A stretch of DNA of 64,000 nucleotides, from positions 52,105-116,104 of the IMG/VR virus record IMGVR_UViG_3300026522_000024; one strand, written 5' to 3'. The translations under genes were made by a program, and so were the position numbers. The notes beneath the pieces were generated by a model, which was not told the DNA's origin, did no database searches, and saw nothing but the letters and a program-made list of their open reading frames with translations. Positions 7,853-51,263 of this stretch are shown one piece after another; positions within the stretch are counted from its first letter, which is position 1, and each line of letters starts with the position of its first letter. The DNA is from a virus (Duplodnaviria; Caudoviricetes).

Positions 7853-7865
7853 TGAGGTGATTATC

Positions 7866-33463: not shown

Positions 33464-34420
33464 ATGATAACACAGTTTGTAAACAAGGGTACAGACTTAG
33501 AGGTGCTGAATAAGTCCTATGAATCTATGCCTCTGGAACAAGAAGAACTTGCTAAGGCACTAAAGAAAGATGGTCTTGTACTGGTTGATGTACAGGTAAA
33601 TGGTAAGCATGGTACGTACACTCGTAAGCAGTGGAAGAAAGCTAGTGATGTAAAGAAGAATGAAGGAAAATCCTCTAAGGGTGCTCCAGATGCTGATAAG
33701 CAGAAGGCTATTCCACAGGTTATTAAGGGTAAGCACATGAGTGACCTGAAGGATAATCTGAGGGAACATGGTCTTGTTTTGGACGGTGCATATGGCAGAA
33801 AGATACGTGATGACGAAGAAGTTATTATGTATGATAAAGATAAGAATACTTACACTGCTAAAGCTAATGTATACTCAGATGGTGGTGTAGAACTGCGTAA
33901 AATTACCAAAGAAAAGAAGGAAAAAACAGCAACTGATAATGGTAATGGCAAGCAACAGGATAGCGGCAGCCCATATCCAGACTACGTGAACAAGACTAAT
34001 GTTGGAGTACCTAAAGCACATAGTTCCTCCTATTTCTCTGAGAAGAAGGCAATTGAGTTTGCTAAGCAATTGCATGATAATGGTGCTACTAATATTGAGA
34101 TTAGTAGTGCTGAAGATGCATTCAATCAGACTCAGTACCGTGTTGCTTGGGATAAGGAAGAAAAGAAACAGAGTGACACAAAGGCAGGTAATAAGCCTAC
34201 CAAGAAAGCAGCTGCTACTTCAAAAGTTAAACAGGATTCTTCATCTAATGTAAGTGTTCCTAAGACCAAAGCAGACATTCAAAGCATGCTTGCTTCTGGT
34301 AAATCCAGAAATGATATTATTGAGCTGGCTAAGAAGTCAGGCATCAGCTGGAAGGAAAATGGCCACGAAGGCATCAACTGGATGAGGTGCTGCATGGCTT
34401 TGACTAAGGCATCTAAATAA
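33464..34420 (+). CDS. Lys-rich protein with the shared N-terminal leader; putative internal virion protein
   Basis: QFVNKGTD..LNKS..LAKA..GLVLVDVQVNGKHGTYTRKQW; C-terminal GISW..H.GINWMR module. Confidence 0.75.
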   Translation: MITQFVNKGTDLEVLNKSYESMPLEQEELAKALKKDGLVLVDVQVNGKHGTYTRKQWKKASDVKKNEGKSSKGAPDADKQKAIPQVIKGKHMSDLKDNLREHGLVLDGAYGRKIRDDEEVIMYDKDKNTYTAKANVYSDGGVELRKITKEKKEKTATDNGNGKQQDSGSPYPDYVNKTNVGVPKAHSSSYFSEKKAIEFAKQLHDNGATNIEISSAEDAFNQTQYRVAWDKEEKKQSDTKAGNKPTKKAAATSKVKQDSSSNVSVPKTKADIQSMLASGKSRNDIIELAKKSGISWKENGHEGINWMRCCMALTKASK

Positions 34421-34439: not shown

Positions 34440-34943
34440 ATGGAACTGCATCCATTCACCAGAGCAGCAGCCTTGGCTGTTCTTATAGGAAACGATTTTT
34501 GGTACATGCATCTGTATGCTAAGGATGAAGACTTTGATAAATCACATCAGCTTACTGGTAATTACTATGACAGGTTAGGCTGGGAAAGTGATGAACTTAT
34601 GGAACTGTCCATAGAGGTCGGTGCTGAAGTATTCAATCCCTCTGAGGTAGGTAAGTGGTTGCCTGAGTACACTCCAGAGAGTGATAAGGCTTACAGCTAT
34701 GGAACAATTGTAACCAAAGCACAGGAAAAGCTCAGATTGTACCTTACAGCACTCAAAGCAATGAGAGATTCTACCAGCCGTACAGATATACAGTCTAGGC
34801 TGGATGAGTGCCTGCGTTACTGGGAGAAGGAACTCAACTACAAGTTGGCAGCCAGAGCAGGTCAGGCTGGTGTACCTTCTATGCTAGTTGGCTTTGTTAA
34901 CTCAGGTTTGGATAACGAACTTGCGTACAAATTTGCTGAATAA
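34440..34943 (+). CDS. Dps/ferritin-like four-helix-bundle protein
   Basis: YMHLYAKDEDFDKSHQLT..YYD....DELME resembles the Dps HW.v.G..F...H...e..y...D.laE pattern. Confidence 0.65.
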   Translation: MELHPFTRAAALAVLIGNDFWYMHLYAKDEDFDKSHQLTGNYYDRLGWESDELMELSIEVGAEVFNPSEVGKWLPEYTPESDKAYSYGTIVTKAQEKLRLYLTALKAMRDSTSRTDIQSRLDECLRYWEKELNYKLAARAGQAGVPSMLVGFVNSGLDNELAYKFAE

Positions 34944-35001
34944 CCAGATATTATCATACAGAAGTACACCAGACTCAATCATATAATTGGAGGTAAGAGA
35001 A

Positions 35002-35214
35002 ATGTTTAAGATAAAGCGTTGGAATAACAAGTACGGAAACGCAGCTAAGTTTGTTGTTTTCGATGAGAAAGCTGACAAGTATGCTGAGTTTTCACCATCC
35101 AATCCCAAGGATATTGCTTGGGTGTCCAGTGATATCACTAAGAATCCAGAGTACAAGTCCTGGGATGACTGGAAGGACGAACCAGTAGATAATCTTGGTG
35201 ATATCATCATGTAA
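35002..35214 (+). CDS. small hypothetical protein
   Basis: GGAGGT SD. Confidence 0.6.
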   Translation: MFKIKRWNNKYGNAAKFVVFDEKADKYAEFSPSNPKDIAWVSSDITKNPEYKSWDDWKDEPVDNLGDIIM

Positions 35215-35228
35215 AGGACTGATAGGTA

Positions 35229-36317
35229 ATGCATTTTATAAACAACCAATCAGACATCAATACTATCAATTTCCTGTCTAAGTCTATACCAATGGAAACC
35301 ATGGAAAAGGCACTAGATAGAACTGGTCTTGTACAGAAAGAGGTACAGTACAAGACCAGTACAGGAAAGATAGCTACTAGGAAGCAGTGGGTAAGAGAAG
35401 GAGAGGAACAGACTGCTGTTAAACCTCCTAAAAAGCAACCTAGACCGCAAGTTGAGGCTACTGACCACAACATAACGGAAAAGACTGCTCACCTGAAACC
35501 TCTTCAGGAAGGAGAAAAGCTGCCTGATTACTTTACTGGAGAGCATGCAGTACCTCCTAACTGGAGGAAGGTTATGTACAGTCCAGACCCAAATGCTAAT
35601 CTGTTAGCTATAGGTAAGGATGGACAGAACAGAACTGTATACTTGTACCATAAGGACTTTGTAGCTAGCAAGTCCAACGAGAAGTTTAGCAGAGTCAGAA
35701 ACTTGATGAAAAACCGTGACAATATCCTTAATTCAATTAAGGAGTTGAAAGAATCCAACCCAGAGGTGTCTGACTGCCTTAATCTTATATTCCATATGGG
35801 TACTAGACCTGGCAGCACAGCAGACACCAAGTCAGTGAAGGAAGCACGTGGGGCTACAACACTGAAGGGTGAGAACGTGGTTGTGGAAGGTGACAATGTA
35901 TACCTAGATTTCACAGGAAAGAAGGGTGTAGCACAGCGTCACAAGGTTACTGATTCCTACCTGAAGACTATGCTAGTACAGCGTAAAAAGAAGGCAGGAG
36001 ACAATGGTGACCTGTTCAATACCACGGATGACCAGCTTAGAAAAGCACTGAAACCTCTTGGACTTCACCCAAAAGATTTACGTACTATGTTAGCCACTCA
36101 TATGGCTAAGCAGATGCTCAAAGACCTTCCTGTAGCGAATAACGCAAAGGAAATGACTAAACTGCGTAACCAAGTAGGTGACAAAGTCTGCTCTGTACTA
36201 GGTAATCAGCGTACAATGGCTTTGAATAGCTACATAGACCCAGAAGTATTCATAGCTCATAGCCCAGACGGCATGAGTGACTGGAAGTCAAATCAATCCA
36301 AGAAGAAGGTGAAATAA
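35229..36317 (+). CDS. type IB DNA topoisomerase (bacterial/poxvirus-like) with the shared leader
   Basis: VPPNW, G.DGQNR..Y.Y, KFSR, TRPGS, GATTL, FTGKKG, KDLRT, LGN, catalytic SYIDP. Confidence 0.9.
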   Translation: MHFINNQSDINTINFLSKSIPMETMEKALDRTGLVQKEVQYKTSTGKIATRKQWVREGEEQTAVKPPKKQPRPQVEATDHNITEKTAHLKPLQEGEKLPDYFTGEHAVPPNWRKVMYSPDPNANLLAIGKDGQNRTVYLYHKDFVASKSNEKFSRVRNLMKNRDNILNSIKELKESNPEVSDCLNLIFHMGTRPGSTADTKSVKEARGATTLKGENVVVEGDNVYLDFTGKKGVAQRHKVTDSYLKTMLVQRKKKAGDNGDLFNTTDDQLRKALKPLGLHPKDLRTMLATHMAKQMLKDLPVANNAKEMTKLRNQVGDKVCSVLGNQRTMALNSYIDPEVFIAHSPDGMSDWKSNQSKKKVK

Positions 36318-36318
36318 C

Positions 36319-36462
36319 ATGAACTTAGACAACCTTACACCTGAGCAAATGACTCAAATGATGAAAGATTCTCTAAAACAACCTACAAAACCTATGACAC
36401 AGGAAGAGAAAGAGCAGGATGACGCAGAGCATGGTTATTTCCAAGAACCAGAACAGGAGTAA
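36319..36462 (+). CDS. 47-aa acidic protein directly after TopIB (not in the ORF track)
   Basis: AAGGTGA SD; MNLDNLTPEQ...DDAEHGYFQEPEQE*. Confidence 0.6.
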   Translation: MNLDNLTPEQMTQMMKDSLKQPTKPMTQEEKEQDDAEHGYFQEPEQE

Positions 36463-36916
36463 CGTAACATTGCGACATGTGAATCCTTGAAAACTTTACA
36501 TAAGTCAAAAATTGAAGGCATAGCTTTACATACAGCTGTGCCCTCTACTTTTATCTACTGGAACTGTAGATATGTGGTAAAATCACATCATGAAATACTT
36601 GACCGAAAATTTTTTTCGGTTGCCTTTTTTAACGTAAAAGAGTAAAAAAGTAAATAACCTTAATTTAATAAAAATACTAAGTTTCTTGTAAAATAAAAAG
36701 AATTAACCTTCTTTTTTACTAACGTAAAAAAGAACAGCACTTGCTGTTTTTACATGTGAATACTTGAATCTTTTTCATAAGCCAGAAAACTGATATGTAA
36801 ACCTCAAAAAATTCTATGAATAGATGATACACATTATGCAGGGTTCTGATTCACTATCCTTTGTAAAATGTACAGTTTTTACTTGAAAAATTTTATATGA
36901 ACTTTATTTTTTCTAC
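36463..36916. other. AT-rich non-coding region with imperfect direct repeats (possible origin or regulatory region)
   Basis: ACATGTGAAT[C/A]CTTGAA...CATAAG at 36475 and 36752; AACGTAAAA twice; A/T tracts; no ORF. Confidence 0.5.
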
Positions 36917-36945
36917 TTTACTCTTGGGATGAAAAGAGATATAAT
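36917..36945 (+). promoter_or_regulatory. host sigmaA-type (early) promoter
   Basis: TTTACT-17 bp-TATAAT. Confidence 0.7.
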
Positions 36946-37003
36946 GTTTTTAGGAACACCTTATGTAAACCACAAAGCAGTTGAGTGAAAAGGAGAGATT
37001 GCT

Positions 37004-37732
37004 ATGAAGAGTACAGAATTGAAAGAAAAGCTAGACAAAGCTATTGAAAGAGTCCACAAGATTGAGGGTACTATTGAGAGGCATAAGAAGCAGGCAGACA
37101 AAAAGCTCACGGAACTGAAGAAACATAACTGGTCTGATAATCCTATGGACCACTCAGGTACTGGAAACCACGAAGCATACTGGTTAGCTTGTGAATATCA
37201 GGATAAGCTGAGTGACATGAAGAATTCACAGAAAAATCTGATTAAGGCTCAAGAAATAGCTAAAAACTGGGAGGACAAGTACAACAAGCAGCTGGAACTA
37301 GAAAGACATTATCAGTTTGAGATACCTGAAGCCTTTAAGACATTGAAGGATATACTTGTAGAGAACTGGACTAAATTCGACTTAGAAGAACAGAAACACT
37401 ACTATAAGAAATACAAAGAGTTAGGGTACAAAACCTTCATCCAGCGTTATAGCAGGAGCAGATGGGACTACCTCAGAAGCCATAATGAACAAGATTTCAG
37501 AGAAGAAAATGAGAAAGCTGCAGAAAACTGGATTTTAGACCTGTATAATAGAATCAAGAGAGAAACAGGAGAGATTGTTACTTGGGATAACATCACAGCA
37601 ACTCCTAAAGGATTGAACGGATACATAAAAGGAAAGTTGGGAGCAGTCAACGTAGAGACCATTATGGCTGGTGGATATAACATCCAGAGACTTCATTACA
37701 GAGTAATTCTTCATAAGGTAAAGGAGGCATAA
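37004..37732 (+). CDS. conserved phage hypothetical protein (coiled-coil N-terminus)
   Basis: LNGYI.G..G...VETIMAGGYNIQRLHYR C-terminal motif; AAAAGGAG SD. Confidence 0.75.
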   Translation: MKSTELKEKLDKAIERVHKIEGTIERHKKQADKKLTELKKHNWSDNPMDHSGTGNHEAYWLACEYQDKLSDMKNSQKNLIKAQEIAKNWEDKYNKQLELERHYQFEIPEAFKTLKDILVENWTKFDLEEQKHYYKKYKELGYKTFIQRYSRSRWDYLRSHNEQDFREENEKAAENWILDLYNRIKRETGEIVTWDNITATPKGLNGYIKGKLGAVNVETIMAGGYNIQRLHYRVILHKVKEA

Positions 37733-37737
37733 CTCAG

Positions 37738-37920
37738 ATGAAAAATAACTGGAGAGTAGTTATCTATGATGACTCTATGAACACAGGTTGTACAGCAACT
37801 AAGGTATTCATGGATAACCTTAACAAAACCACCGCTAAGAAGATTGAGCGTTACATGAATCACAAGATGGAAGAGACAGAAATGTTTGATATCAGCTATG
37901 TAGCTGAAGAAGTGGCGTAA
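37738..37920 (+). CDS. small hypothetical protein
   Basis: AAGGAGG SD. Confidence 0.55.
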   Translation: MKNNWRVVIYDDSMNTGCTATKVFMDNLNKTTAKKIERYMNHKMEETEMFDISYVAEEVA

Positions 37921-38075
37921 TAACCTGCTGAGGTGAACCTTCAGACGGTTGATACTGGAAGGCAGCTGGGTGGTTTAGACATGTGGGCTGACCCACCCAG
38001 TTGATGATAACCAGATTGATACTGAATGTTTGGAACCATATAGCAGAGATTCCTCACACTAAGGGGGTAACAACA

Positions 38076-39932
38076 ATGAAAGACTATAAAAATCAGATAG
38101 CTGAATTGAAAGCAGACGTACACACCATCTGGAAACTGCAATGTCAGAACCTTTACAACAGCAAAAACCTTGGAGCATTGGCTGTACGTGAGTGCCTTCA
38201 GAATAGCATTGACGCTATAAGGACTGCTGAGAAGAACGGTGACATCGCTCAGGGTGAAGGATACATCAATATCAGCTGGGAGGGCAGCAACCTTATTATT
38301 GAGGATAATGGAGTAGGGATGAACCTTCAGACCTTACATGACAAGTTTCTAACCCTTGGTGGGACTACTAAGGGTGATGAGAGTAATGTAGGCGGATTTG
38401 GATTAGCTAAATCAGTTATCCTTGGATGCGGCAGTGGATTTAAGGTAGAAACCCAGGATAATGTGTTTACCAATGAAGACCTTGGTGTTAATCCTATACA
38501 GAAACAGGATTACAGACAAGGCACACGCATTACCTTGAAGAACGTACAAGTTGGTAAGGGTAAGAGCATAGAAGATGATTCCGATAGATTTAAATACGCT
38601 GTATACGATTATGTATTCACCAGCCAGATTCCTGAAGACATTAAGGTTACTGTAAATCATAAGGACTATGACTCCTATAAGAGATTTGTTCAGACTTCTT
38701 CTACTAGACGTGCACCTGCTGTATTTAACATTGGTAAAGACATCATACCAAAGAACACTAAAATCAGAGTAAATGTGTATAAGACCGCCAAGAATGATTT
38801 CTCTGGATACCTGTATGTTAGACTGAGAGGACTGACCCAATTCAAGCAATACCTTAGCTGGAATGCTACTTTTCATGTAGTGCTTGATATAGACACTAAG
38901 TTAGACCCACGTGACGTAGACTATCCATTCAGCACTAATAGAGAAGGACTGAAAGCACAGTATCAGGGTATTCTCTCAGCTATATCAGATAAGGTTAGTC
39001 AGTCACCAATTGCTATCTCAGACCACTCTAACTACAAGGAAACCTTCTATGATAACAAGACCAGCAATGCTGAGCGTAATAGAGTAATTGTTTCTCAGTT
39101 GATTTCTAAGGACTTGATGAAGGCTGCTAATACCGTATCTAAGGCAGTAGCTGGTATGATACCACAAGGAGGTTACACTGTTCCTTCTGTAGCTGAGAAA
39201 ATTCAGCAACTAAATGAAGTAGTAGAGAAGGTAGCACACGAATGTGGTAGGACTAAAGATGAAGTGGTCAATGGTTTGAGCACCGAAAATCTTCAGTCTT
39301 TGAACAATCCGTTGGATTACTCTTGGATTGTATGGCAGGATAAGGATACTCATGTTAAGAGGATAAACAGCAGCACTCAGGTCAGCTTTATATTGGCTTG
39401 GGACAGCATCCTGAGATTGATGGCTAGCCATTCTCCTGAGTTGAATGGAAAAACCTTCTACCCTGGTATCATCGTTAGGAAAGATTACATGGGATTGTGC
39501 TTAGAAAAGAACATAGCTTCTTGTGGCACTAGACACTACATTATGATGAATCCATATTTGATTCCTAATGACGATGACCTGTCTATAGCCTTATATTTGA
39601 TGAACTTGGCATCACACGAACTTGCTCATTTAGCTTGCGGAACATATGAGGCTCACGGTGAGACATTCTCCTATACTAGAGAATCCATCATGAATCACAA
39701 TTTGGTTAACGTGAATGCTGTAATGAAGATGCTGCGTAGCATGGGATTTAAGAAACTTCTCAATAAAGTAGAGCAGAAGAAGCAGTCTGAGGATTATTCT
39801 TATTTTACTTTGGACGACATTGTTGATATGGCAGAGAATAAGGGAATTGATGTACAGCAACTACAGGATAAGTATAGCAATCAACAGATTCTTAGGATGA
39901 GACTCATAATGGCTATCAAAAAAGCAGGTTAA
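38076..39932 (+). CDS. GHKL (HSP90/MORC-like) ATPase fused to a HExxH zincin-like domain
   Basis: RECLQNSIDA, IEDNGVGM, GGFGLAK, GTRI; C-terminal HELAH...H. Confidence 0.85.
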   Translation: MKDYKNQIAELKADVHTIWKLQCQNLYNSKNLGALAVRECLQNSIDAIRTAEKNGDIAQGEGYINISWEGSNLIIEDNGVGMNLQTLHDKFLTLGGTTKGDESNVGGFGLAKSVILGCGSGFKVETQDNVFTNEDLGVNPIQKQDYRQGTRITLKNVQVGKGKSIEDDSDRFKYAVYDYVFTSQIPEDIKVTVNHKDYDSYKRFVQTSSTRRAPAVFNIGKDIIPKNTKIRVNVYKTAKNDFSGYLYVRLRGLTQFKQYLSWNATFHVVLDIDTKLDPRDVDYPFSTNREGLKAQYQGILSAISDKVSQSPIAISDHSNYKETFYDNKTSNAERNRVIVSQLISKDLMKAANTVSKAVAGMIPQGGYTVPSVAEKIQQLNEVVEKVAHECGRTKDEVVNGLSTENLQSLNNPLDYSWIVWQDKDTHVKRINSSTQVSFILAWDSILRLMASHSPELNGKTFYPGIIVRKDYMGLCLEKNIASCGTRHYIMMNPYLIPNDDDLSIALYLMNLASHELAHLACGTYEAHGETFSYTRESIMNHNLVNVNAVMKMLRSMGFKKLLNKVEQKKQSEDYSYFTLDDIVDMAENKGIDVQQLQDKYSNQQILRMRLIMAIKKAG

Positions 39933-39941
39933 CACGGATTT

Positions 39942-39970
39942 GGCGGCAGTACATACTGCCGCCTTTATTT
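39942..39970 (+). terminator. rho-independent terminator
   Basis: GGCGGCAGT-acat-ACTGCCGCC followed by TTTATTT. Confidence 0.75.
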
Positions 39971-40008
39971 ATATTATTTACTATATGTGTTTGAAAGGTG
40001 TGTGGAAT

Positions 40009-40224
40009 ATGCCTAAGATTATAATTGAATCCTCTGATAAGAGAGATACACAAGTAGATATAGAGGAAAAGCTAGAAAAGGCAGTGTCTGCCATTAGAGA
40101 ACAACGTGAAGGAAAGCAATTTACAGACAATTTTCTTAGGGAAACTAAGGAAAAAGCTGATGTAGTAGTCAATAAGTTGTTTTCTAACATGGTCAAGGAA
40201 ATCAATGAAGTATTAGCGAAATGA
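40009..40224 (+). CDS. small helical hypothetical protein
   Basis: AAAGGTG SD; contains LEKA. Confidence 0.6.
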   Translation: MPKIIIESSDKRDTQVDIEEKLEKAVSAIREQREGKQFTDNFLRETKEKADVVVNKLFSNMVKEINEVLAK

Positions 40225-40233
40225 GGGAAAACC

Positions 40234-41358
40234 ATGGGAATCAACTTTGTAGATAAAGGCTCAGACTCAGCTCTAGTCAATCTTCTTCATGAAGACTACT
40301 TGAAAAAGTCATTTCATCGTGAAGGATTGACTCCAGTTAGAGTGTCTGTTAATGGAAAACATGGTAATTACACTACTACTGTGTATAAGAATCTAAATGA
40401 ACACGGAAAGCAGGTCAGTAAAAACAAGCCTAGATTCAATCCTGATAAGGGTAAGAACACAGCTAGTAAGCTACAGAATAAGGACTTTATGTACATGAAT
40501 ACAGCTACTGGTGATATATTATCACTGGATGAGGTAAAACGTGAGTACAATCAACTTCCTGAAAAGGAAAAGAAATCACATAAAACTCTTGATAGTTACC
40601 TAAAATCCACTTATTTTATTTCAAATGGAACTAACAAGACTTGTGATATGTACAGGATTGCTCCTGGCAAGTACACTAAGGAAAGAACACAGGCAGTCCA
40701 TGAACCCATAGTACAAGATTATCTATCTAAAGCACAGGATGCTCCAGAAGATACCCCACCAATACTTTTCTTGTATGGCGGTGGAAGCGGCGTAGGCAAG
40801 TCCACAATAGTCAACTCTATAGTGAAGCCTATGTCTGATGAGTTAGGAGTAAACCTACTCAAAGTAGACTGTGATGACATTAAGGAGTTGCTTCCAGAGC
40901 ATGAAATGTTTATGGCTCAAGATGAGCGTACTGCTGCTGGTAGGTTACACAGAGAATCTTCAGATATTACCAATAAGGTAATAGATGAGCTCACTAAGGC
41001 TAAAAAGTGCTTTGCATATGATGGTTGCATGGGAGACACTTCTAAGTACCAGAAAATTATCAATAAAGCTAGAGATAATGGATATTACGTACATATCATA
41101 GCAGCAGATATTCCAGTAGATATGGCTATTGCTCGTGCTAAATCAAGGAGCAGAAAGATTGATGACGCTATATTCCATAAGACTCATACTGCTTTTGGAA
41201 ATAATTTTTTGGATATAGCAGGGATGGCTGATTCGTTTGCGCTGTATGACAATTCTCAGGATAGTAATTTGCCACCTACATTAATTGTAGATGATACTGG
41301 AATACGCAATGAAGAACTTTATGAGCGTTTTCTTATGAAAACAGATGGGGAGGCATAA
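40234..41358 (+). CDS. zeta-toxin (PezT)-like P-loop kinase with the shared leader
   Basis: GGGSGVGKST, VDCDDIKELLP, HRES, AYDG, AIARAKSR, LYDNS. Confidence 0.85.
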   Translation: MGINFVDKGSDSALVNLLHEDYLKKSFHREGLTPVRVSVNGKHGNYTTTVYKNLNEHGKQVSKNKPRFNPDKGKNTASKLQNKDFMYMNTATGDILSLDEVKREYNQLPEKEKKSHKTLDSYLKSTYFISNGTNKTCDMYRIAPGKYTKERTQAVHEPIVQDYLSKAQDAPEDTPPILFLYGGGSGVGKSTIVNSIVKPMSDELGVNLLKVDCDDIKELLPEHEMFMAQDERTAAGRLHRESSDITNKVIDELTKAKKCFAYDGCMGDTSKYQKIINKARDNGYYVHIIAADIPVDMAIARAKSRSRKIDDAIFHKTHTAFGNNFLDIAGMADSFALYDNSQDSNLPPTLIVDDTGIRNEELYERFLMKTDGEA

Positions 41359-41360
41359 AT

Positions 41361-41525
41361 ATGAGCACTAAGACCTTTAATAAAGAAAACATTGTAGCCT
41401 TGCGTAAGAAATATGAGAAAAACCCTGTTCAGCAAGATTTTGCTAACGACAAGTCAGTGTTTGAGTTTCCAGATGACATAACTGATGAGGAACTGGATAA
41501 ACACATTGAGAGAATGAAATCATAA
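41361..41525 (+). CDS. 54-aa protein directly after the zeta-like kinase (candidate antitoxin; not in the ORF track)
   Basis: GGGGAGG SD; MSTKTFNK...DDITDEELDKHIERMKS*. Confidence 0.65.
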   Translation: MSTKTFNKENIVALRKKYEKNPVQQDFANDKSVFEFPDDITDEELDKHIERMKS

Positions 41526-41544
41526 TAATTGGAGGAGATAAATC

Positions 41545-44500
41545 ATGATAAGGACTACAGATATTGCTTCCTATCTTGTAGACAAGGCTAAGTTAGACCT
41601 AATGGGTGGTAGCTCCAATCTGGAAAAAGCACAGAGAGATTATTCTAAGCTGGTAAAGGTGCGTAGACCAGTAACACGTAAGGGTAAGACCTTTATGCAA
41701 GACATATGGGTGCTGCCAGGTCAGGTTAAGTCATCAGATGTGGTTCTTCAGAACAAGCATAATGTCATTCCTTCTCTTAGTAGCCTCACTAAGCCATCTG
41801 CTGGTATTTTGGATATGAAGTATTTTGCTGCTTTGGAGAACACTGATAGAACTAAAGCAATGGATTACTTGAAAGACCTTGGATTTACATGGAAGGTAAA
41901 TAGCAATCCTAGTATAAACTGGATGTGGGCTAAGAGTGCTCTTAATAAATTCCTGAATGCTAATCCTTCTTTTAAGACCACCGCAGGTTCAATTTCTGGG
42001 TTGGTAGGTGGTCAGACTCAGGTTACTTCTCAGGCAACCAACGTAACAACGCAAATTGCTCAGAATAAGACACCTTCTACGGTGAATACGGCAACCATGA
42101 TGTCTTCTTTTACGCCTCAGCAGCAAGCAGAGATTAATGCTTGTGCTAATGGTAAAGAAAAATTCTCTAAGATTCGTGAAATTCTTGGTAAAGATGGAGT
42201 GATATCTTGGGCGAAGGCTAATGGTATTACTTGGAATGAGCATGCTCATAATGCTATTAATCTTATGAGACTTGGTATGGCTGTTAGGGAATGCTTTGAT
42301 GCTATAAATGGGACAGTGTCTCCTGGTCCAATATCTAAGACTCCTACTAAGAAACAGCCTGCACCTGCTGCTCCTAAAATAGACCCAGATGAACTGCCTG
42401 TGCCTGCTAATGCTACAGAGCGTACTAAGAATTTGATTAAACACATAAATAACATGACAAGTGTAGCTGAGATTACTGATTGTACTAAGATGGGTATGGT
42501 TCCAGAAGATGATGTAGCTAAGTCGTTTATTCTTGAGAAATTCCTTCCTTCATTTAAGTTATGGGTAGGTGGTGGTGCTCCTAAATCTGTTAAGGATAAA
42601 TGGGCAAAAGATACTGGTTCTAGTGCTTCTTCTATAAATACTTATGCTAAGACTCCATGTGATTGGGGTGAGAGAGCAGTAGATACTATGAAGTTGGCTG
42701 GGTATAAAAAAGATATGGCTTCACATAATATTAGTATCTCTTTTTCTGGATTTACTATGGGTAAAATGCTTTCTCCTAGACAATACATGGTATTTAAAGA
42801 CCACAATAAAATGCTGCATTTTGGTAAATCATCAGAAAAGCCATTTGATATTATCAACAGCTTGAATGATACTTATTCTGACTATACAACCGATGATTAC
42901 AAAACTACTGACTCTTGGGGTACTACCATTAACCTCTACCCAACTAATCTTGGATATACTGGTTTAGACCCAGCTGAATACAGGAAAAAGTACAATATAG
43001 AAAAAGAAGGTTTTGTTAGATACCTCAGAAGAGTGCAAAAATCTAATCCAGGTTTGAGTTCTACAGTTCAGGAAATGATAACTACGTATGATGAGACTAT
43101 GAAATTGGCTGGATATAATCCTAATTTGCTTTCATATGTTCAGAAAAATGATTGGGATGATACAGCTCAACCTACATACTGGTCTTCAAGATTTGATAGT
43201 AGTTTAAGGTTAAATAATTTTTCTCCAGCTGATGCAAAAAAAGCTGTAGAAATCATAGAATTACAGTATAACACAGTTATTTCTGAATTAGAAAAAGCTG
43301 GTTATTCACAACAGGTTATTGCTGATACCTTGGGTTACAAATGGGGTTCAGGCTATCTTGATAACTTTAAGGTAGTTGATAGAAGTTCAGGTTCTACCTC
43401 CACTCTTGCTACTCTAAATATAGCTAATTTGTTACCAGATGAAGCTAAAAGATGGAATTACGCAGCAGCTTCATATGCTTATTGCAGATACTGCAAGGAA
43501 AACGGTATAGAAAATAAATCTGGTAATGGGACAAAAGAGTATGCTTGGTTGGAGCAGGTAAAGCAATTATCTCAGATGGATAAAGTTACATATGAAAAGA
43601 TTAACTCTAATTTAGAGAAACTGTATGGCTTTAGCAATAATAATGGCGTAATACAACCTACAGATAACAAGGACTATGACTCAATTTGGAGTAACCTTAT
43701 TTTAACAAGTAATATGGTTGATATGCACCACAAAATGGCAGTTTCAGCTAGAAGTAATACTGCTAGTCCCTTGAATAAAAGGGGAACAGAATATCAAGGT
43801 AATTATGATTATTATAGTGGTATGGCTATGAAAGATGATGCTAAAATGCGTATAAAGCAGTATGGTAACTATACTGGGAGTACTGCTTCTACGTATTCCA
43901 TAAAGGAACTTTCTGATAAAATTCAGAGCCAGCTTGATGAGGCACCAGTTGTTACAACCAAGTATCTTGATGACTTACGTAACTACTATACTAACAAGTA
44001 TCTTGATGACTTACGTAACTACTATACTAATCAGACACAAAGTCAGAATATTCCAGTTGATTCTTCTGCTGTTGCTAACCAAGCAGATAAGGATACCATG
44101 TGGAAGGCTGACTACGATAAGGAGAGTAATGAAACTCCATCTAAGGATATAGCTCAAATGATTTATCTTCAGGTAGCAAAGCATATTCCTAAGATGGCTG
44201 AATCCTCTAATCTTGAACAAAAACTTAACAAAAACTTTGATTATGTTCCGTTTGATTTCTCTACTAATGTACAACCAAGGTTTAACAAGCCTAAGAAAAC
44301 TGCTACTAGCAACACAACTAAGTCTGACCTTAGAAAAGCCAGAGAGGAATTGCTGAGTAAAGCTAAGTGTAGTATAGGCACAGAAGATGATGCTACATCT
44401 TTGGATATGAGAAAAGACTTCCTGAAGCGTTGGGATTATAAGGCAGGAGAGAAGACACCTGGTGGAACAGTAATGAGTGGCAGAGTGCACTCTGGTCCAA

Positions 44501-45144
44501 ACGCACCTCATGGTGACCAGAGGGCTTTGTTCAACTCCAGATTTTTCGCTGTAAGGAATAGTGTCTTTGAAGATAGGTTCAATAAAGAGCAGGAAAGACT
44601 GAAAGGTGCTTCTACTGACTCTAAGACCTATACTCCACTGGAAGTATTCCATGGCACTTCATATGGGTGTGCTCCTAACATCATAGGGCGTGAAGGAGAA
44701 TTCTTTATGGGAGGCAGCTACACTAAGGCTGGTAAGATGCTTGGAAATGGTGTCTATGTAGCTAATAAGGGTGGCAAGTCCTCAGTTTATATTGGTAATT
44801 CTTCATATGCTAATCGTCAGATTCACACAAGTCCTGGTGACGCAGACGGAATTATGATGTGTCTTACAGTTATGAGAGGTGATAACTATAAGTCAAGAGG
44901 TAATGGATTCTATGGTAATAGCTCAGACCCATCAATTACTTCTCTGGAGCAGGATGCTGGTTCATTGAATGACTGGGAAATGGCTGTAAAGCGTAATGAG
45001 CTGGTATTCCCACATCACTTTGTAGATATTTCTAGTAGGGTAATTGGTAAGAATGTTACCAGAGACTCAATTACTGGAGAATACAAAGATAACGTCAGTG
45101 GAAACACTTATGATAAATATGGAACTCTTAAAGGGATGAAATAG
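41545..45144 (+). CDS. 1199-aa multidomain protein: shared leader, two small repeat modules, C-terminal PARP-like (H-Y-E) ADP-ribosyltransferase
   Basis: VFHGTS, GKMLGNGVYVA...KS..Y, GIMMCLTVMRG, DWEMAV..LVFPHHFV. Confidence 0.8.
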   Translation: MIRTTDIASYLVDKAKLDLMGGSSNLEKAQRDYSKLVKVRRPVTRKGKTFMQDIWVLPGQVKSSDVVLQNKHNVIPSLSSLTKPSAGILDMKYFAALENTDRTKAMDYLKDLGFTWKVNSNPSINWMWAKSALNKFLNANPSFKTTAGSISGLVGGQTQVTSQATNVTTQIAQNKTPSTVNTATMMSSFTPQQQAEINACANGKEKFSKIREILGKDGVISWAKANGITWNEHAHNAINLMRLGMAVRECFDAINGTVSPGPISKTPTKKQPAPAAPKIDPDELPVPANATERTKNLIKHINNMTSVAEITDCTKMGMVPEDDVAKSFILEKFLPSFKLWVGGGAPKSVKDKWAKDTGSSASSINTYAKTPCDWGERAVDTMKLAGYKKDMASHNISISFSGFTMGKMLSPRQYMVFKDHNKMLHFGKSSEKPFDIINSLNDTYSDYTTDDYKTTDSWGTTINLYPTNLGYTGLDPAEYRKKYNIEKEGFVRYLRRVQKSNPGLSSTVQEMITTYDETMKLAGYNPNLLSYVQKNDWDDTAQPTYWSSRFDSSLRLNNFSPADAKKAVEIIELQYNTVISELEKAGYSQQVIADTLGYKWGSGYLDNFKVVDRSSGSTSTLATLNIANLLPDEAKRWNYAAASYAYCRYCKENGIENKSGNGTKEYAWLEQVKQLSQMDKVTYEKINSNLEKLYGFSNNNGVIQPTDNKDYDSIWSNLILTSNMVDMHHKMAVSARSNTASPLNKRGTEYQGNYDYYSGMAMKDDAKMRIKQYGNYTGSTASTYSIKELSDKIQSQLDEAPVVTTKYLDDLRNYYTNKYLDDLRNYYTNQTQSQNIPVDSSAVANQADKDTMWKADYDKESNETPSKDIAQMIYLQVAKHIPKMAESSNLEQKLNKNFDYVPFDFSTNVQPRFNKPKKTATSNTTKSDLRKAREELLSKAKCSIGTEDDATSLDMRKDFLKRWDYKAGEKTPGGTVMSGRVHSGPNAPHGDQRALFNSRFFAVRNSVFEDRFNKEQERLKGASTDSKTYTPLEVFHGTSYGCAPNIIGREGEFFMGGSYTKAGKMLGNGVYVANKGGKSSVYIGNSSYANRQIHTSPGDADGIMMCLTVMRGDNYKSRGNGFYGNSSDPSITSLEQDAGSLNDWEMAVKRNELVFPHHFVDISSRVIGKNVTRDSITGEYKDNVSGNTYDKYGTLKGMK
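43959..44030 (+). repeat. perfect 36-bp in-frame tandem duplication (KYLDDLRNYYTN x2)
   Basis: CAAGTATCTTGATGACTTACGTAACTACTATACTAA twice. Confidence 0.95.
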
Positions 45145-45157
45145 GAGGTAGTTAACA

Positions 45158-45469
45158 ATGATGAAGAAACTTATCAGGCACATTAACTTTATTGGGCACG
45201 AAATCAATCAGTCCATAGAGGACTATCCTGAGTCTGACAGAGAGGTTTTCTGTAAGAAACTTCATACTATAAAAGAGCCAGATGAGGCAGACTGTATGAA
45301 TTGTCCTTACTTTGGTGGTATGGGTCAGGGAACTGCTCATGAGTGCGTATGGGAAGAACCAGTAGATATAAGCTCAGAACTGGTCATGTACATTGAGCAT
45401 AAAGATAGACAGAAGGAAATGATGCGAGTATCCGAAATGATTGATGCTGGTGTCATCCAGAAGGGATAA
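45158..45469 (+). CDS. small Cys-containing protein after the ART gene (candidate immunity protein)
   Basis: AGGAGGT SD; C..CMNCP..C. Confidence 0.65.
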   Translation: MMKKLIRHINFIGHEINQSIEDYPESDREVFCKKLHTIKEPDEADCMNCPYFGGMGQGTAHECVWEEPVDISSELVMYIEHKDRQKEMMRVSEMIDAGVIQKG

Positions 45470-46356: not shown

Positions 46357-47988
46357 ATGGCTGTAAAAGTAAAGTTAGTTGGAGCACCCGTATCTAATTC
46401 TGCTCCCAATACCAAGATTATAAAATCTAACAGTTATTCTTCCACTAATACTATAGATTTGGTGAAAGGTATACCAGCTGAAGATTTGAAGGCATATTAC
46501 GAAAATCCAATAAGACTGGCGTCAGCTATGAATTATAAGGATAAGCCATCAAGTCTTTCTTACAACATATTGTATCAGATGAGCGTAAAGAACAGTGTTA
46601 TTGCAGCAGTCATCAATACACGTGTTAATCAGGTATCAACTTTTACCAAGCCTAAGAGGTTTTCTACTGATGGTATAGGCTTTGAGGTGCGTCTCAGAGA
46701 CCCACAGGCAGTACCTACTAAAGAGCAGCAAGAAGTCATTAAGTCATTAGAAATGTTCCTAGAGAACTGTGGTTATAAGAACGACAATGATACTGATGAC
46801 TTTGATACATTCATACGTAAGATTGTTCGAGACAGCCTTACTTATGACCAGGCATGCTTTGAGGTAGTACCAGATAGGAAGGGTAAGCCAGCTCAAATAC
46901 TGGCTGTGGATGCTTCTACTATAAGGGCTGCTAGTGAGGACTATCAGGACAATACCATATGGTCCAAAAATCCTCCTAAGAAGAATGAGAAGGTGTCTTG
47001 GGTACAGGTTATAGATGGTACTGTAGTAAGCTGGTTTACCGCTAATGAAATGGCATTTGGGGTACGTAACCCACGTTCCAATATAAACCTTCAGCCATAT
47101 GGCTTCAGTGAATTGGAACAGCTTATACAGCAAATCACATCACACCTGTATGCTGAAGAATACAACAGTAAATTCTTCTCTCAGGGTGGCACTACGAAGG
47201 GTATTATCAATATAAAGTCTGACCCTAACGGTATAGGGAATAAGGAGCAACTTGACTCATTTAAGAGACAGTGGAGAGCACAAGTAAATGGTATGGCTGG
47301 CGCTTGGAAAACTCCAGTACTTCAGGTACCACAGGGTATAGAGTACATAAATGTGTCTCAATCTAATAGAGACATGGAATTTAATCAGTGGATGAATTAC
47401 CTGATTAACATTGTGTGTGCTGTATACGCTATAGACCCAGCTGAAATTAACTTTGCTAATAATGGCGGTGCTGCTGGACAGAGCAGTGTATTTGAATCCT
47501 CTCAGGAACAAAAGCTGAAGAATTCTAAGGATAAAGGCTTGAAACCTCTGTTAAGATTTGTAGAAACCATCATTAACAAGTTTGTTATTTCCAGATTTTC
47601 TGCTGAATACGTATTCTCATTTACAGGATTGGATGAGAAGTCTGAAGAGGAAAAAGCTGAGTTAGAGACAAAGCAGTCTAAAGTTTGGAAAACTGTAAAT
47701 GAGATACGTAAGGAACACGGAGAAAAGCCCATAGATGACGGTGACGTAATTCTGGATGCTAGCTGGATTAACTATCACCAGCAGACCCAGATGGCTGCTC
47801 AACAGCAGGAAATGATGGCTGGTGAAGGTGACGAAGGTGATGAATACTCTGATGAAGAAGATACTGAGGGGTATTCTGAGCCTGAAGAGTACAGTGAAGA
47901 GCAACCCTCAGAAGAAGGTTATGAAGAGGATTCTGAGGAAAATACCGAAAAATCAATGTCTAAACTTATAATAACCATAGATGATTAA
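46357..47988 (+). CDS. portal protein
   Basis: AVINTRVNQV, VRDSLTYDQ, AVDASTI, YGFSELE, FFSQGGTTKGI, DMEF.QW, SKDKGLKPLL. Confidence 0.95.
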   Translation: MAVKVKLVGAPVSNSAPNTKIIKSNSYSSTNTIDLVKGIPAEDLKAYYENPIRLASAMNYKDKPSSLSYNILYQMSVKNSVIAAVINTRVNQVSTFTKPKRFSTDGIGFEVRLRDPQAVPTKEQQEVIKSLEMFLENCGYKNDNDTDDFDTFIRKIVRDSLTYDQACFEVVPDRKGKPAQILAVDASTIRAASEDYQDNTIWSKNPPKKNEKVSWVQVIDGTVVSWFTANEMAFGVRNPRSNINLQPYGFSELEQLIQQITSHLYAEEYNSKFFSQGGTTKGIINIKSDPNGIGNKEQLDSFKRQWRAQVNGMAGAWKTPVLQVPQGIEYINVSQSNRDMEFNQWMNYLINIVCAVYAIDPAEINFANNGGAAGQSSVFESSQEQKLKNSKDKGLKPLLRFVETIINKFVISRFSAEYVFSFTGLDEKSEEEKAELETKQSKVWKTVNEIRKEHGEKPIDDGDVILDASWINYHQQTQMAAQQQEMMAGEGDEGDEYSDEEDTEGYSEPEEYSEEQPSEEGYEEDSEENTEKSMSKLIITIDD

Positions 47989-48035: not shown

Positions 48036-48806
48036 GTGAAGAAATTGAAAGACTCTGATGTGTTTAGTTTTTGCTTGCCCTTTGATGTGCTTAAATCCAC
48101 TGATGCTAATTCTGATGAGTGGCGTATAGGAGGATATGCTAGTACATCTTCTGAAGACCGTCAAGGTGACGAAATAGTCCAAAAAGGTTTGGATTATGAC
48201 GATTTTGTGAACTATGGCTGGTTCAATTTTGACCACCACAATGACCAAATTCTTGGTTATCCAGATAAGAATAAGTGTAAGATTGATTCTCATGGATTCT
48301 ATGTTGAGGGTACACTCCTTAAAGGAGTAGAAATTGCTAAGAATATGTGGGAAACAGCACTTGCACTACAGAAGTCTGGGGCTAATCGGAAACTTGGATT
48401 CTCTGTGGAAGGCAAAGTATTACAACGAAATGCCCTTGGTAAGATTGTAAAAGCCAAAATATACAATGTGGCTATAACCCCAAACCCTGTTAATACATCG
48501 TGTACTTGGGATGCATTAGTTAAGTCATTTACCACCGATAAGGATGACATAGAGAAGGCTTTGGAAGCAGGTCACAGTGATGCAAGTGGTTCAGCTATCG
48601 TACCAGAATCACTGGAATCTGCATTTAAGACTTTGTCATATGCTATTGGTGATGATGAAGAAGCAAAAAACTATATGTCTGAACTTAGGAAAAAACTTCT
48701 AAACAAACAAGATATTACAAAAAGCGAATTCATACTGTATCTACAGCTCACCAAGGGGTTGTCATATGAGGCTTCTAGGGAGTTAGCAGAAACATTATCC
48801 AAGTAA
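48036..48806 (+). CDS. prohead protease
   Basis: GYAST..DRQGD, FNFDH, LGFSVEG, VAITPNPVN. Confidence 0.92.
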   Translation: MKKLKDSDVFSFCLPFDVLKSTDANSDEWRIGGYASTSSEDRQGDEIVQKGLDYDDFVNYGWFNFDHHNDQILGYPDKNKCKIDSHGFYVEGTLLKGVEIAKNMWETALALQKSGANRKLGFSVEGKVLQRNALGKIVKAKIYNVAITPNPVNTSCTWDALVKSFTTDKDDIEKALEAGHSDASGSAIVPESLESAFKTLSYAIGDDEEAKNYMSELRKKLLNKQDITKSEFILYLQLTKGLSYEASRELAETLSK

Positions 48807-48821: not shown

Positions 48822-49748
48822 ATGCTTAATGACAAACTTTCAAAGAGTTTGGCAGACCTGGATGCCGCCGCAGATGAGCTGTTGAAAAAGTCTGCTGATG
48901 CTGAGGCGGATGAGGAAAAAGACAAGGACAATGAGCCTGCACCAGAAGATATTGCTGATGCTGCTCCAGCCAAGGATGATGAGAAAGATAAGGACTCAGA
49001 AGACACTGACATTGAAAAGTGTGGGGATAACCCTACCAAACTGACTAAGTCAGAGGAATCTGAGGAAGCAGAGGATGAACCCATTGAGGAAAAGACCGAA
49101 GAAAATAAAGAAGATGAAGAGAACTCTGAAGGCAATGACAATGCTGAAGAGGGAGAAGATGAGGAAGACACTACAAAAGAAGATGTTGAAAAGTCCGTTA
49201 AGGATGACTTCACAGCCAATGAAAATATCAATAAGGCACTTCAGAGCAGTGAATTCCAAGCAGCCATGGTGGATATATTGGTTAAATCTCTTAGTGAGAT
49301 TGAATACAGCATGCATTCTTCTAGCAAAGACCAAGAAAAGGCAGCGTCAGTGATGGCTAAGTCCATGCAGGCTGTCCTCCTGAGCAATAAGTCACTTTCA
49401 GCTGAGAATGAGGCTTTGAAGCGTAGGGTGAATAAGCTGGAGAAGTCCATTAGCATGGGCTTTGATAAGGTCTTGGATGCTATTGATACTATTTCCACTG
49501 AGCCAGCTCATCAGCGTAAGTCTATGGCTAGCATTAATGTACATGATAAGGATTTCAATAAGTCGCTCAATGGCTCTGGTGCTGTTGGTGGATTTGAAAG
49601 CCTTTCCAAGTCTCAGGTACTTAGTGTACTGAATAATGAGCTGTACAGCGGCAATCAGTTAGTCACAGCTCAAGATATTATCTCCTATGAGTCAGGTGCT
49701 CCTTTGAGAGTAGAATTGCAGCCACTTGTTATGAGCAAGTGTAAGTAA
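48822..49748 (+). CDS. capsid scaffolding protein
   Basis: acidic and coiled-coil, between protease and capsid, with many [LVMF]xK[SA] sites. Confidence 0.75.
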   Translation: MLNDKLSKSLADLDAAADELLKKSADAEADEEKDKDNEPAPEDIADAAPAKDDEKDKDSEDTDIEKCGDNPTKLTKSEESEEAEDEPIEEKTEENKEDEENSEGNDNAEEGEDEEDTTKEDVEKSVKDDFTANENINKALQSSEFQAAMVDILVKSLSEIEYSMHSSSKDQEKAASVMAKSMQAVLLSNKSLSAENEALKRRVNKLEKSISMGFDKVLDAIDTISTEPAHQRKSMASINVHDKDFNKSLNGSGAVGGFESLSKSQVLSVLNNELYSGNQLVTAQDIISYESGAPLRVELQPLVMSKCK

Positions 49749-49820: not shown

Positions 49821-51263
49821 ATGTCTGTTTCAATGAATGATTATGTGGATTTTGGTCAGGGCTTCGGTACTGCTAATGCAAGTGATGTTGCTGAACTGAA
49901 TAAGGCTCTGAACACAGGGGCATATGCCCAAGCGAATGGTGTGGCTGGCCAGGTGAATGGTGCAGCACTCCAAGTTGAGTCTCTGGAGAATAGCTTGAAG
50001 GTGCTTACTTTCAGTGACCAACATGTAAAATTCTGGAAGAAGATTGCTAAGACTCCAGCTTACAGCACAGTTGAGGAATACAACCAGCTGCTCAGCTATG
50101 GCAATCAGTTCAGTGGTTTCCTGCCTGAAGGCGTGCTGCCTGAGACTGATGATAGCGAGTACAAGCGTCAGGCTTCTTTCGTGAAATTCCTTGGTACCAC
50201 CAGGGAAGTCACTCATCCGATGACTCTGGTGCGTTCTGCTCATGGTGACGTTATCGCCCGTGAGAATCAGAATGGTATCCTGTGGATTATGAAGCAACTG
50301 GAGCATGCTCTGTTCTGGGGTGATAGCACTCTTGCTCAGCCTGGCAAGGAGGGTGTTCAGTTTGATGGTCTGAACAAGCTCATCGATGGCGAAAATGTGT
50401 ATGACTGTAAGGGTGAAGACCTGAAGGACACCGACATCAACTATGGTGCTCAGATTATTCTGGAGAATTTTGGTACTCCTTCTGACCTGTATCTGCCATA
50501 TGAGGTACTTGCTACATTTAGCAATACCTTCTTCCCGAAAGAGCGTGTTATCATGCCTACTCAGGGTGCTGGCTATCAGGCTGGTCTGGTTATCAATAAA
50601 TTCCAGACTCACGGTGGTGCAGTTGAATTCCAGCCAGACCTCTTCCTGCAGAAGACAAAGCCACTTAGCAACACTGGTTCTGGTGGTACCAAGGCTCCAA
50701 CTGCTCCTGCTTCTCTTACTGTTACAATTAACACTGAGGAAGTGGATGCTAACTTTAAGGCAGGCACATACGTGTACAGCGTAACAGCTTGCAATCGTTT
50801 TGGTGAGTCTGTACCTGTTGCTGGTGATGCTTCCGCAGTTGTTACTGCTAGCGATGTTAAGAAGGGCGTGAAGCTGGTTATTACTAACTCTGCTTCCATG
50901 GTTGTGGCTCCAGATTACTTCTGCATCTATCGTTCTGAGAAGGACGGCACGAAGAAGTTCTGCGTAGCTAAGATTCCTGCTACTTCTATCAACGCCAGCG
51001 GCACAACTCAGTTTGTTGATAAGTGTGAGATTCTCGCGAATACTTACACTGCTTTCATGGGTGAGTTCACTCCAGAGGTTATTGCCTTCAAGCAGCTTGC
51101 TCCTATCATGAAGATGGATTTGGCTCTGCTTGGTCCAGCATACCGTTGGATGATTCTCCTGTATGGTGTGCCTCAGCTGTATGCTCCTAAGAAGTGGATG
51201 AAGTTTATCAATATCAAGGCTTCTAGTGACCGTACATCTAGCACTGCTCTTTACAACAACTAA
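49821..51263 (+). CDS. major capsid protein precursor
   Basis: LNKALNTG, GAALQVESLE, STVEEY, LEHALFWGD, QFDGL.KLI, LAPIMK..LA, APKKW. Confidence 0.95.
   Translation: MSVSMNDYVDFGQGFGTANASDVAELNKALNTGAYAQANGVAGQVNGAALQVESLENSLKVLTFSDQHVKFWKKIAKTPAYSTVEEYNQLLSYGNQFSGFLPEGVLPETDDSEYKRQASFVKFLGTTREVTHPMTLVRSAHGDVIARENQNGILWIMKQLEHALFWGDSTLAQPGKEGVQFDGLNKLIDGENVYDCKGEDLKDTDINYGAQIILENFGTPSDLYLPYEVLATFSNTFFPKERVIMPTQGAGYQAGLVINKFQTHGGAVEFQPDLFLQKTKPLSNTGSGGTKAPTAPASLTVTINTEEVDANFKAGTYVYSVTACNRFGESVPVAGDASAVVTASDVKKGVKLVITNSASMVVAPDYFCIYRSEKDGTKKFCVAKIPATSINASGTTQFVDKCEILANTYTAFMGEFTPEVIAFKQLAPIMKMDLALLGPAYRWMILLYGVPQLYAPKKWMKFINIKASSDRTSSTALYNN

Follow-up and report, generated by a model that had tools for sequence, protein, structure and literature searches.

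Proteins that phages inject with their DNA, among them enzymes of counter-defence and host takeover, act before phage gene expression; the way in which a phage protects itself from its own cargo during assembly has hardly been studied. In phage T4, diverse cargo proteins, among them the ADP-ribosyltransferase (ART) Alt, have only a short N-terminal capsid targeting sequence in common; they enter the scaffold core and are later ejected into the host (PMC3012670). The MuF-toxin genes of phages, which occur almost only in temperate phages, are accompanied downstream by a short open reading frame (ORF) in 89.4% of cases (PMC5576092), and polyvalent proteins, encoded beside portal and terminase genes, carry zeta-like kinase and ART domains as virion-delivered early effectors, type IB topoisomerase (TopIB) not being treated as an effector domain in that work (PMC5512222). 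In phage P1, the Dar proteins DarA and Hdf are linked to head morphogenesis (PMC12810830). The locus described here belongs to a phage (Duplodnaviria; Caudoviricetes) and lies in the stretch of 64,000 nucleotides (nt) from positions 52,105 to 116,104 of IMG/VR virus record IMGVR_UViG_3300026522_000024, referred to below as the window. Between window positions 35,229 and 45,469, genes for a TopIB, a zeta-toxin-family kinase and a protein of 1199 amino acids (aa) with an ART-like domain, all with an N-terminal leader, are each followed by a small gene.

These three small genes, termed s47, s54 and s103 after the lengths of their products, are genuine, conserved genes, each of them tied to its own enzyme and inherited together with it. 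The best explanation, to which we give a probability of about 0.4, is that they encode cognate inhibitors of enzymes that are loaded by their leaders and ejected as cargo. They would then represent three new families of small inhibitor (of a type IB topoisomerase, a zeta-family kinase and a PARP-like transferase), and the toxin and immunity logic of MuF loci would extend to cargo that is loaded by a leader, in a phage that is probably virulent. That TopIB is paired with an acidic module again and again in many uncultured phages is a lead open to direct testing.

Three leader-bearing enzymes and their small neighbours

Every gene in the window is on the + strand, and the gap from enzyme stop to small ORF is 1 nt after TopIB (stop 36317, ATG 36319), 2 nt after the kinase (41358 to 41361) and 13 nt after the 1199-aa protein (45144 to 45158). 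Sequences resembling Shine-Dalgarno (SD) sites stand ahead of s47, s54 and s103 (GAAGGTGA, GGGGAGG and AGGAGG, respectively). The leader consists of ~60-80 N-terminal aa that are common, by blastp and genome search, to TopIB, the kinase and a 318-aa protein (33464..34420) with no recognised enzyme domain, and a leader search of the 116-kb genome matched these three proteins only. The 1199-aa protein has a divergent copy, connected to the others through the leader proteins of another lineage (L007), which its N-terminus resembles. The leader was not found in s47, s54 or s103, and the catalytic motifs are intact in all three enzymes.

Such a layout alone is only suggestive. Six of the 23 window genes of at least 300 aa have an ORF of at most 110 aa within 20 nt downstream, and three of these six are the pairs studied here, which puts the background at ~15%. 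The evidence that counts is conservation and synteny. Wider contexts for the kinase and s103 came from ENA, Logan and NCBI contigs, IMG/VR having given near-identical relatives only, and two close relatives (L001 and L002, 87-94% DNA identity) were available for comparison at the nucleotide level.

TopIB (35229..36317) matches PF01028 at 3e-15 as well as PF21338, has a leader of ~80 aa, and its catalytic residues R193, K231, R285, N326 and Y335 are invariant in 29 homologues. The 47-aa acidic product of s47 (36319..36462), the final gene of the operon, belongs to a family of ten aligned sequences (nine further clusters, 46-51 aa) with the pattern M-T-x-E-E ... D-A-x-x-G-Y-F, whose C-terminal D-A-x-x-G-Y-F is invariant (invariant residues M26, E29, E30, D35, A36, G39, Y40 and F41), and it shows 4 synonymous and 2 non-synonymous differences from close relatives. 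TopIB has a small ORF behind it in L001, L018, L019 and L025, where it is an s47 homologue in each case, and in one record without DNA; in L018 the TopIB stop and the start of the s47 homologue overlap as ATGA. The wider contexts (L018, L019, L025 and the record without DNA) are collinear with the window and so offer no independent test of linkage. The TopIB core is very basic (isoelectric point 9.6) and s47 very acidic (4.3), as would be expected of an occupant of the DNA-binding surface.

The zeta-toxin-family P-loop kinase (40234..41358), also with an N-terminal leader, matches PF06414 at 8e-22, and its Walker A motif GGGSGVGKST (residue 182) and HRESSD (residue 239) are invariant in four lineages. 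The 54-aa s54 (41361..41525) differs from L001 and L002 by 11 synonymous and 1 non-synonymous changes. Its family has 8 representatives among 1.84 billion proteins, which have a common I-T-D-E-E-L-x-x-H-I-K-R helix, and a zeta kinase is found directly upstream in 6/6 contexts (the window, L007, L014, L020, L021 and one more record). The kinase is flanked by a gene of ~70 aa upstream and an s54-family gene of 51-55 aa downstream in the window, L007, L014, L021 and a record without DNA, the 54-aa ORF of L007 having only the motif T-D-E-E-I in common with s54. These genes keep together when their surroundings change: in L014 the trio of 70-aa gene, kinase and 51-aa gene lies ~9 kb away from the pair of big protein and 103-aa protein, and in L020 s54 remains with the kinase despite quite different downstream genes.

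The 1199-aa protein (41545..45144) combines its divergent leader with a HeH-like module and a C-terminal PARP-like H-Y-E domain resembling ARTs. Its motifs FHGTS (residue 1035), GNGVYV (1067) and DWEMAV (1143) are represented by FHGT, GxGxY and D-W-E-x-x-V that are invariant in five lineages, and there is a weak match to a PARP12/tankyrase profile (E 0.019). Pfam gave no match on this protein, and its assignment as a putative ART is weaker than those of TopIB and the kinase. An AlphaFold2 model of its C-terminal 480 aa was unusable (predicted local distance difference test, pLDDT, 43). The gene contains a 36-nt tandem duplication (43960-44031) encoding K-Y-L-D-D-L-R-N-Y-Y-T-N twice with one silent difference, which is not in L001 or other relatives.

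The partner of the 1199-aa protein, s103 (45158..45469), has a net charge of -8 and 16 homologues of 101-163 aa in which C32, H36, C46, C49, H61 and C63 are invariant, and it is probably a zinc binder; it differs from close relatives by an in-frame 3-nt indel. In every lineage seen, rearranged genomes included, a member of its family comes next after the big protein. In L009, L010 and L014 the pair of big protein and 106-aa protein is found between 165-aa and 70-aa homologues of the window's 167-aa and 75-aa genes, which in the window adjoin each other and are followed by TopIB and s47. With the AlphaFold2 model of s103 (pLDDT 77.6) as query, Foldseek returned nothing at E of 0.001 or lower, and the highest VIA-align Z was 2.3; its profile matched PDB sequences no better than by chance (E 0.13), and an Atlas search returned hypothetical-protein clusters only. 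Neither Pfam, PHROGs nor PDB sequences matched it as a macrodomain or ADP-ribosylhydrolase, an absent fold match not excluding such a fold.

The three partners form mutually unrelated families, each seen solely beside its own enzyme in the contexts examined, and none of them, nor the 71-aa protein encoded upstream of the kinase, has a match in Pfam or PHROGs even at E up to 5. The small ORFs are kept by relatives whose enzymes are 30-56% identical, and all three stay open in L001 and L002. The kinase-s54 and big-protein-s103 pairs, which persist in differing neighbourhoods, behave as cassettes through rearrangement. This makes it very improbable that the three are ordinary small phage genes whose adjacency reflects the general gene order of the phage group. 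Small genes are common enough in the window (31 of 84 crude gene calls are of at most 110 aa), and all close s47 contexts have identical neighbours, the linkage being untried by rearrangement within that lineage, but the other two pairs survive rearrangement, and phages of very different kinds have TopIB together with an acidic module, an association 15 times commoner than after control genes.

A first-pass annotation of this DNA had proposed that each leader-bearing enzyme is followed by a tightly coupled small ORF that lacks the leader and has its own SD. The three ORFs and their positions and spacing, the SD-like sequences, the missing leaders and the identities of TopIB and the zeta-like kinase were all recovered, and the conservation and co-occurrence across related phages that it looked to are borne out by the contexts described above. 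The 103-aa protein does have the cysteines ascribed to it, and is better called a Cys/His protein than a short acidic tail. What failed is the word "each", because the gene after the 318-aa leader protein is a Dps-like one of 167 aa, and L007 has two leader proteins that lack a small partner.

Two terminator-like hairpins (36517..36622, +) close the transcription unit that runs from the 318-aa gene through the 167-aa, 75-aa and TopIB genes to s47. They lie in a non-coding gap of ~540 nt after s47 (36463-37003) that also has a promoter-like TTTACT-17-TATAAT (36917-36945), and a gap of similar length is kept in L018, L019 and a third record. An ORF at 36487-36645 was ruled out as a gene by a 1-nt indel in L001 and by its overlap with the hairpins. 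Three TopIB homologues from JGI metagenomes (P0075-P0077, 541-560 aa) also contain, within one polypeptide, an ADP-ribosyltransferase exoenzyme domain (PF03496), so that TopIB and ART are fused in other elements.

An acidic module downstream of TopIB in uncultured phages

An alignment-based scan of IMG/VR yielded 289 phage TopIB relatives, and 87 non-redundant loci were assessed. A short, strongly acidic module lies directly 3' of the TopIB core in 66 of the 87, with the consensus P-D-V-H-F-G ... D-W-R ... D-P-D-D-E-E-L-x-E-T-P-x-D-V-x-x-M-L-G-F-D-P. Some 43 of these modules stand alone, as ORFs of 43-80 aa that often share 4 nt with the TopIB stop, while 19 form the N-terminus of the next protein, which may be a DUF2213 protein, a MuF protein or a polyvalent protein whose domains are PARP/Tpt1-like or ATLF-like. 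Three are fused in frame to TopIB itself (L056, L075 and L099), and these fusions are evidence that points to functional coupling. Two further loci first classed as such fusions were rejected as misclassified (L124 has a stop codon after the TopIB core and L125 has the same coordinates), leaving three of five.

The association also holds when approached from the other side, as a scan that started from the motif found TopIB upstream in 45 of 48 assessable loci. Within the same loci 46% of TopIB genes have a strongly acidic ORF next downstream, compared with 3% of other ORFs of at least 200 aa. TopIB itself is often the C-terminal part of head-module proteins of 800-1200 aa in the IMG/VR loci (L024-L152), fusions to the portal included, and the portal protein of L110 has both the acidic module and what remains of a TopIB N-domain. 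No description of the association was found in the literature searched, and the pairing, apparently new, is the most readily testable result of the analysis. The s47 family and this module are treated here as analogous, not homologous, what they have in common being position, size, charge and a G-Y/F-D/F core.

Cognate inhibition and the alternatives

The three enzymes are probably cargo that is loaded into the capsid and ejected, judging from the shared leader and from the position of their genes between those of the terminase and of the portal, protease and scaffold. If the partners are cognate inhibitors, each would be co-produced with its enzyme from one message, would bind the catalytic domain and would hold the enzyme inactive or off its substrate during replication and assembly, the presumed substrates being DNA for TopIB, a sugar-nucleotide or similar compound for the kinase, and NAD and a target for the ART. 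The partner, having no leader, would not be loaded, and its exclusion from the capsid would leave the enzyme free in the next host. The leader proteins without a recognised enzyme domain (318 aa in the window; 559 aa and 551 aa in L007) have no small partner, and the partner thus appears to track the catalytic domain and not merely the leader. That the partners are unrelated while the leader is common likewise argues that each would recognise its own catalytic domain, not the shared loading signal.

The same facts bear on a possible, though doubtful, alternative in which the partners have a positive role as loading or assembly helpers, each being a dedicated chaperone or adaptor that maintains its cargo in soluble form and delivers it to the prohead's scaffold/portal core. 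This is how the Dar accessory proteins of phage P1 and the chaperones of type III secretion act. The genes lie in the head-assembly region beside those for protease, scaffold and portal, and where the acidic module is fused to the N-terminus of DUF2213 or MuF proteins or to a portal-TopIB protein in other phages, it is physically part of the assembling head; s103 is also conserved at the level of a head gene (55% identity compared with 62% for the neighbouring 281-aa protein), and DarA and Hdf of P1, with their link to head morphogenesis, offer a precedent (PMC12810830). Helpers that act on a common loading leader would not be expected to come from three unrelated families, however, nor would the leader proteins without an enzyme domain be expected to lack one, and 47 aa is very small for a chaperone.

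Several observations weigh against cognate inhibition itself. Among the Pfam and PHROG families, no immunity protein or antitoxin resembles any of the partners. The zeta-like domains of phages PSS2 and DAC16 have no such partner, nor is there an acidic downstream ORF after two leaderless TopIB homologues in cellular-looking contexts. Homology between the s47 family and the LGFDP module was not detected (hhalign probability 0.3%). The producing cell is probably doomed, given the missing tyrosine integrase, and protection would then serve the replication of the phage and not the cell. In addition, classical immunity proteins are not more conserved than their toxins, and the 55% identity of s103 is to be set against only 30-35% for its enzyme; a partner that evolves more slowly than its enzyme and close to the rate of a head gene suggests structural or cofactor constraint more than immunity. 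Its slow evolution relative to the ART-like domain, its six invariant Cys/His residues and the existence of in-frame fusions of TopIB and acidic module would all suit positive cofactors or specificity subunits that are required for activity, such as a zinc protein that presents the target to the ART. We regard this as improbable, because leaderless partners would not reach the next host unless carried there by binding the enzyme, and none has similarity to known cofactors.

For the kinase there is a second candidate partner, absent from the first-pass annotation, and this also counts against s54 as its inhibitor. Directly upstream lies up71 (40009..40224), a gene for a conserved helical protein of 71 aa that is 59% identical to a 72-aa gene product of L007, while the kinases of these lineages are 35% identical. 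In L014, L021 and a fifth record, too, the gene immediately upstream of the kinase encodes 68-72 aa, making five of five lineages in which the upstream side is covered. (A TTG start at 39940, giving "orf94", was rejected as it falls inside a terminator hairpin at 39942-39963, and the ATG at 40009 is preferred.) In epsilon/zeta operons the antitoxin gene comes first, upstream of the toxin, and up71 occupies this canonical position and is better conserved than s54. It is nevertheless unlikely that up71 is the kinase's real antitoxin, as in epsilon/zeta and PezA/PezT, and that s54 has another role: up71 matches neither epsilon nor any other family in Pfam or PHROGs, and s54 is equally faithful to the kinase, so that both could bind.

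On the fate of the partner at packaging, the TopIB data are awkward for inhibitors that stay outside the capsid. The first-pass annotation had the small proteins left behind at packaging, and the small ORFs of the window do lack the leader; in some other phages, the acidic module forms one chain with TopIB or with the head protein encoded next (DUF2213, MuF or polyvalent ART proteins), which would place it inside the procapsid. Such fused modules fit the proposal only if they are cleaved off, and they suggest a mask that is removed at maturation rather than left outside, or else a role in assembly. A broader form of the inhibitor hypothesis, which we hold to be rather unlikely as a general rule, is a "capsid-gated" control in which each dangerous cargo enzyme has its own short masking protein, co-produced with it and keeping it inactive through replication and assembly. 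The mask would then be shed, either by exclusion from the prohead or, where fused, by cleavage by the prohead protease, and the enzyme would not fire until it reached the next host. TopIB with its acidic peptide (66/87 loci) would in that case be the most widespread example of a mask, and s47, s54 and s103 would be three new and unrelated mask families in one genome.

Taken as a whole, the effector and immunity layout proposed at first pass stands in that the ORFs are real, conserved, enzyme-specific, leaderless and co-inherited; the lack of a known immunity family, the second kinase partner and the slowly evolving s103 leave its functional half plausible but less secure.

Genome setting and relation to known systems

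The window is the final 64 kb of a complete virus record of 116,104 bp with direct terminal repeats. No tyrosine integrase was found anywhere in the 116-kb genome, and the phage is probably virulent; no close relative was found among GenBank phages. The stretch of interest is bounded by the large terminase (29138-30805, PF05876) and the portal (46357-47988), beyond which come a head maturation protease (48036..48806, PHROG 1028 at 1.8e-81), which would be the enzyme that cleaves the leader, the scaffold protein (48822-49748) and the major head protein (49821-51263). The genes follow one another as SNF2 helicase, 318-aa leader protein, 167-aa Dps-like protein, 75-aa protein, TopIB and s47; then, after the hairpins and the gap with its promoter-like site, a 242-aa gene, a 60-aa gene, a GHKL ATPase and a terminator-like hairpin; and finally up71, the zeta-like kinase, s54, the 1199-aa protein, s103, the 281-aa protein and the portal.

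The 167-aa and 75-aa genes (34440-35214) are a conserved pair that match PHROG 3636 (DNA-binding/Dps-like) and phrog_19917, respectively, and this pair brackets the big-protein-s103 cassette in L009, L010 and L014. The 167-aa protein was considered as a macrodomain antidote to the ART on the basis of a weak ThsA_Macro match (E 0.024) and was rejected, PHROG 3636 and its sequence pointing to a Dps/ferritin-like protein. The short HeH-like module (PHROGs 12391 and 13880, "transcriptional regulator") recurs at the C-terminal ends of the 318-aa protein (34300-34410) and the GHKL ATPase (39700-39930) and at residues 207-251 of the 1199-aa protein (42190-42290). The 242-aa gene (37004-37732) is missing from the close relative L001/L003, where the alignment skips from 37030 to 37715, and is a recent insertion or deletion, while L002 has an insertion of ~900 bp (7376-8273) between the 281-aa and portal genes that is not in the window. 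The DNA-modification genes directly upstream of the terminase also differ, L014 (114-2377) having a lysine aminomutase and a B12-binding subunit and L009 (1-3557) a HAD hydrolase, Fe-ADH and ADDT, which suggests that DNA hypermodification chemistry varies within this phage group.

Among the nearest parallels to the locus are the MuF toxins, with which it has in common a head-module enzyme thought to be delivered with the DNA and, directly downstream, a small ORF of no known family (PMC5576092). As in polymorphic-toxin and MuF loci, the small ORF is conserved, has its own SD and begins directly after the enzyme (1, 2 and 13 nt). The kinase with s54, and likewise the big protein with s103, is swapped as a cassette, the TopIB-s47 contexts being only collinear. 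The delivery part is different, being a shared N-terminal leader on separate proteins and not a MuF domain; PF04233 (MuF) has no match in the TopIB, kinase, 1199-aa or 281-aa proteins. The phage also differs from the carriers of MuF toxins in its 116-kb genome with terminal repeats and no tyrosine integrase, and in having three pairs of enzyme and partner in one genome.

Like epsilon/zeta and PezA/PezT, the locus has a zeta-family P-loop kinase with conserved motifs that is tightly linked to small helical proteins, but up71 and s54 match neither epsilon nor PezA, and the kinase here bears a leader and has two flanking partners. DarT/DarG differs in that s103 has no match to a macrodomain or ADP-ribosylhydrolase and has six invariant Cys/His residues instead. 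The P1 Dar system, with packaged DarB and its accessory proteins, resembles the locus in that large head-packaged enzymes, whose packaging is predicted here, stand beside small phage-specific proteins. In P1, however, the accessory proteins function in loading and are associated with the head themselves, and no sequence similarity was detected between them and the partners described here. The effector domains of polyvalent proteins occur in one giant polypeptide, whereas here they are on separate proteins with a common leader and individual partners (PMC5512222).

As in T4, unrelated cargo proteins (here the 318-aa protein, TopIB and the kinase) share an N-terminal sequence, which would be a loading signal, although it is much longer (~60-80 aa, compared with ~10 aa in T4). 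We know of no dedicated partner genes described for T4 cargo. The locus thus combines two known kinds of system, capsid-targeted cargo of the T4 type and toxin-small-ORF pairs of the MuF type, in a new form.

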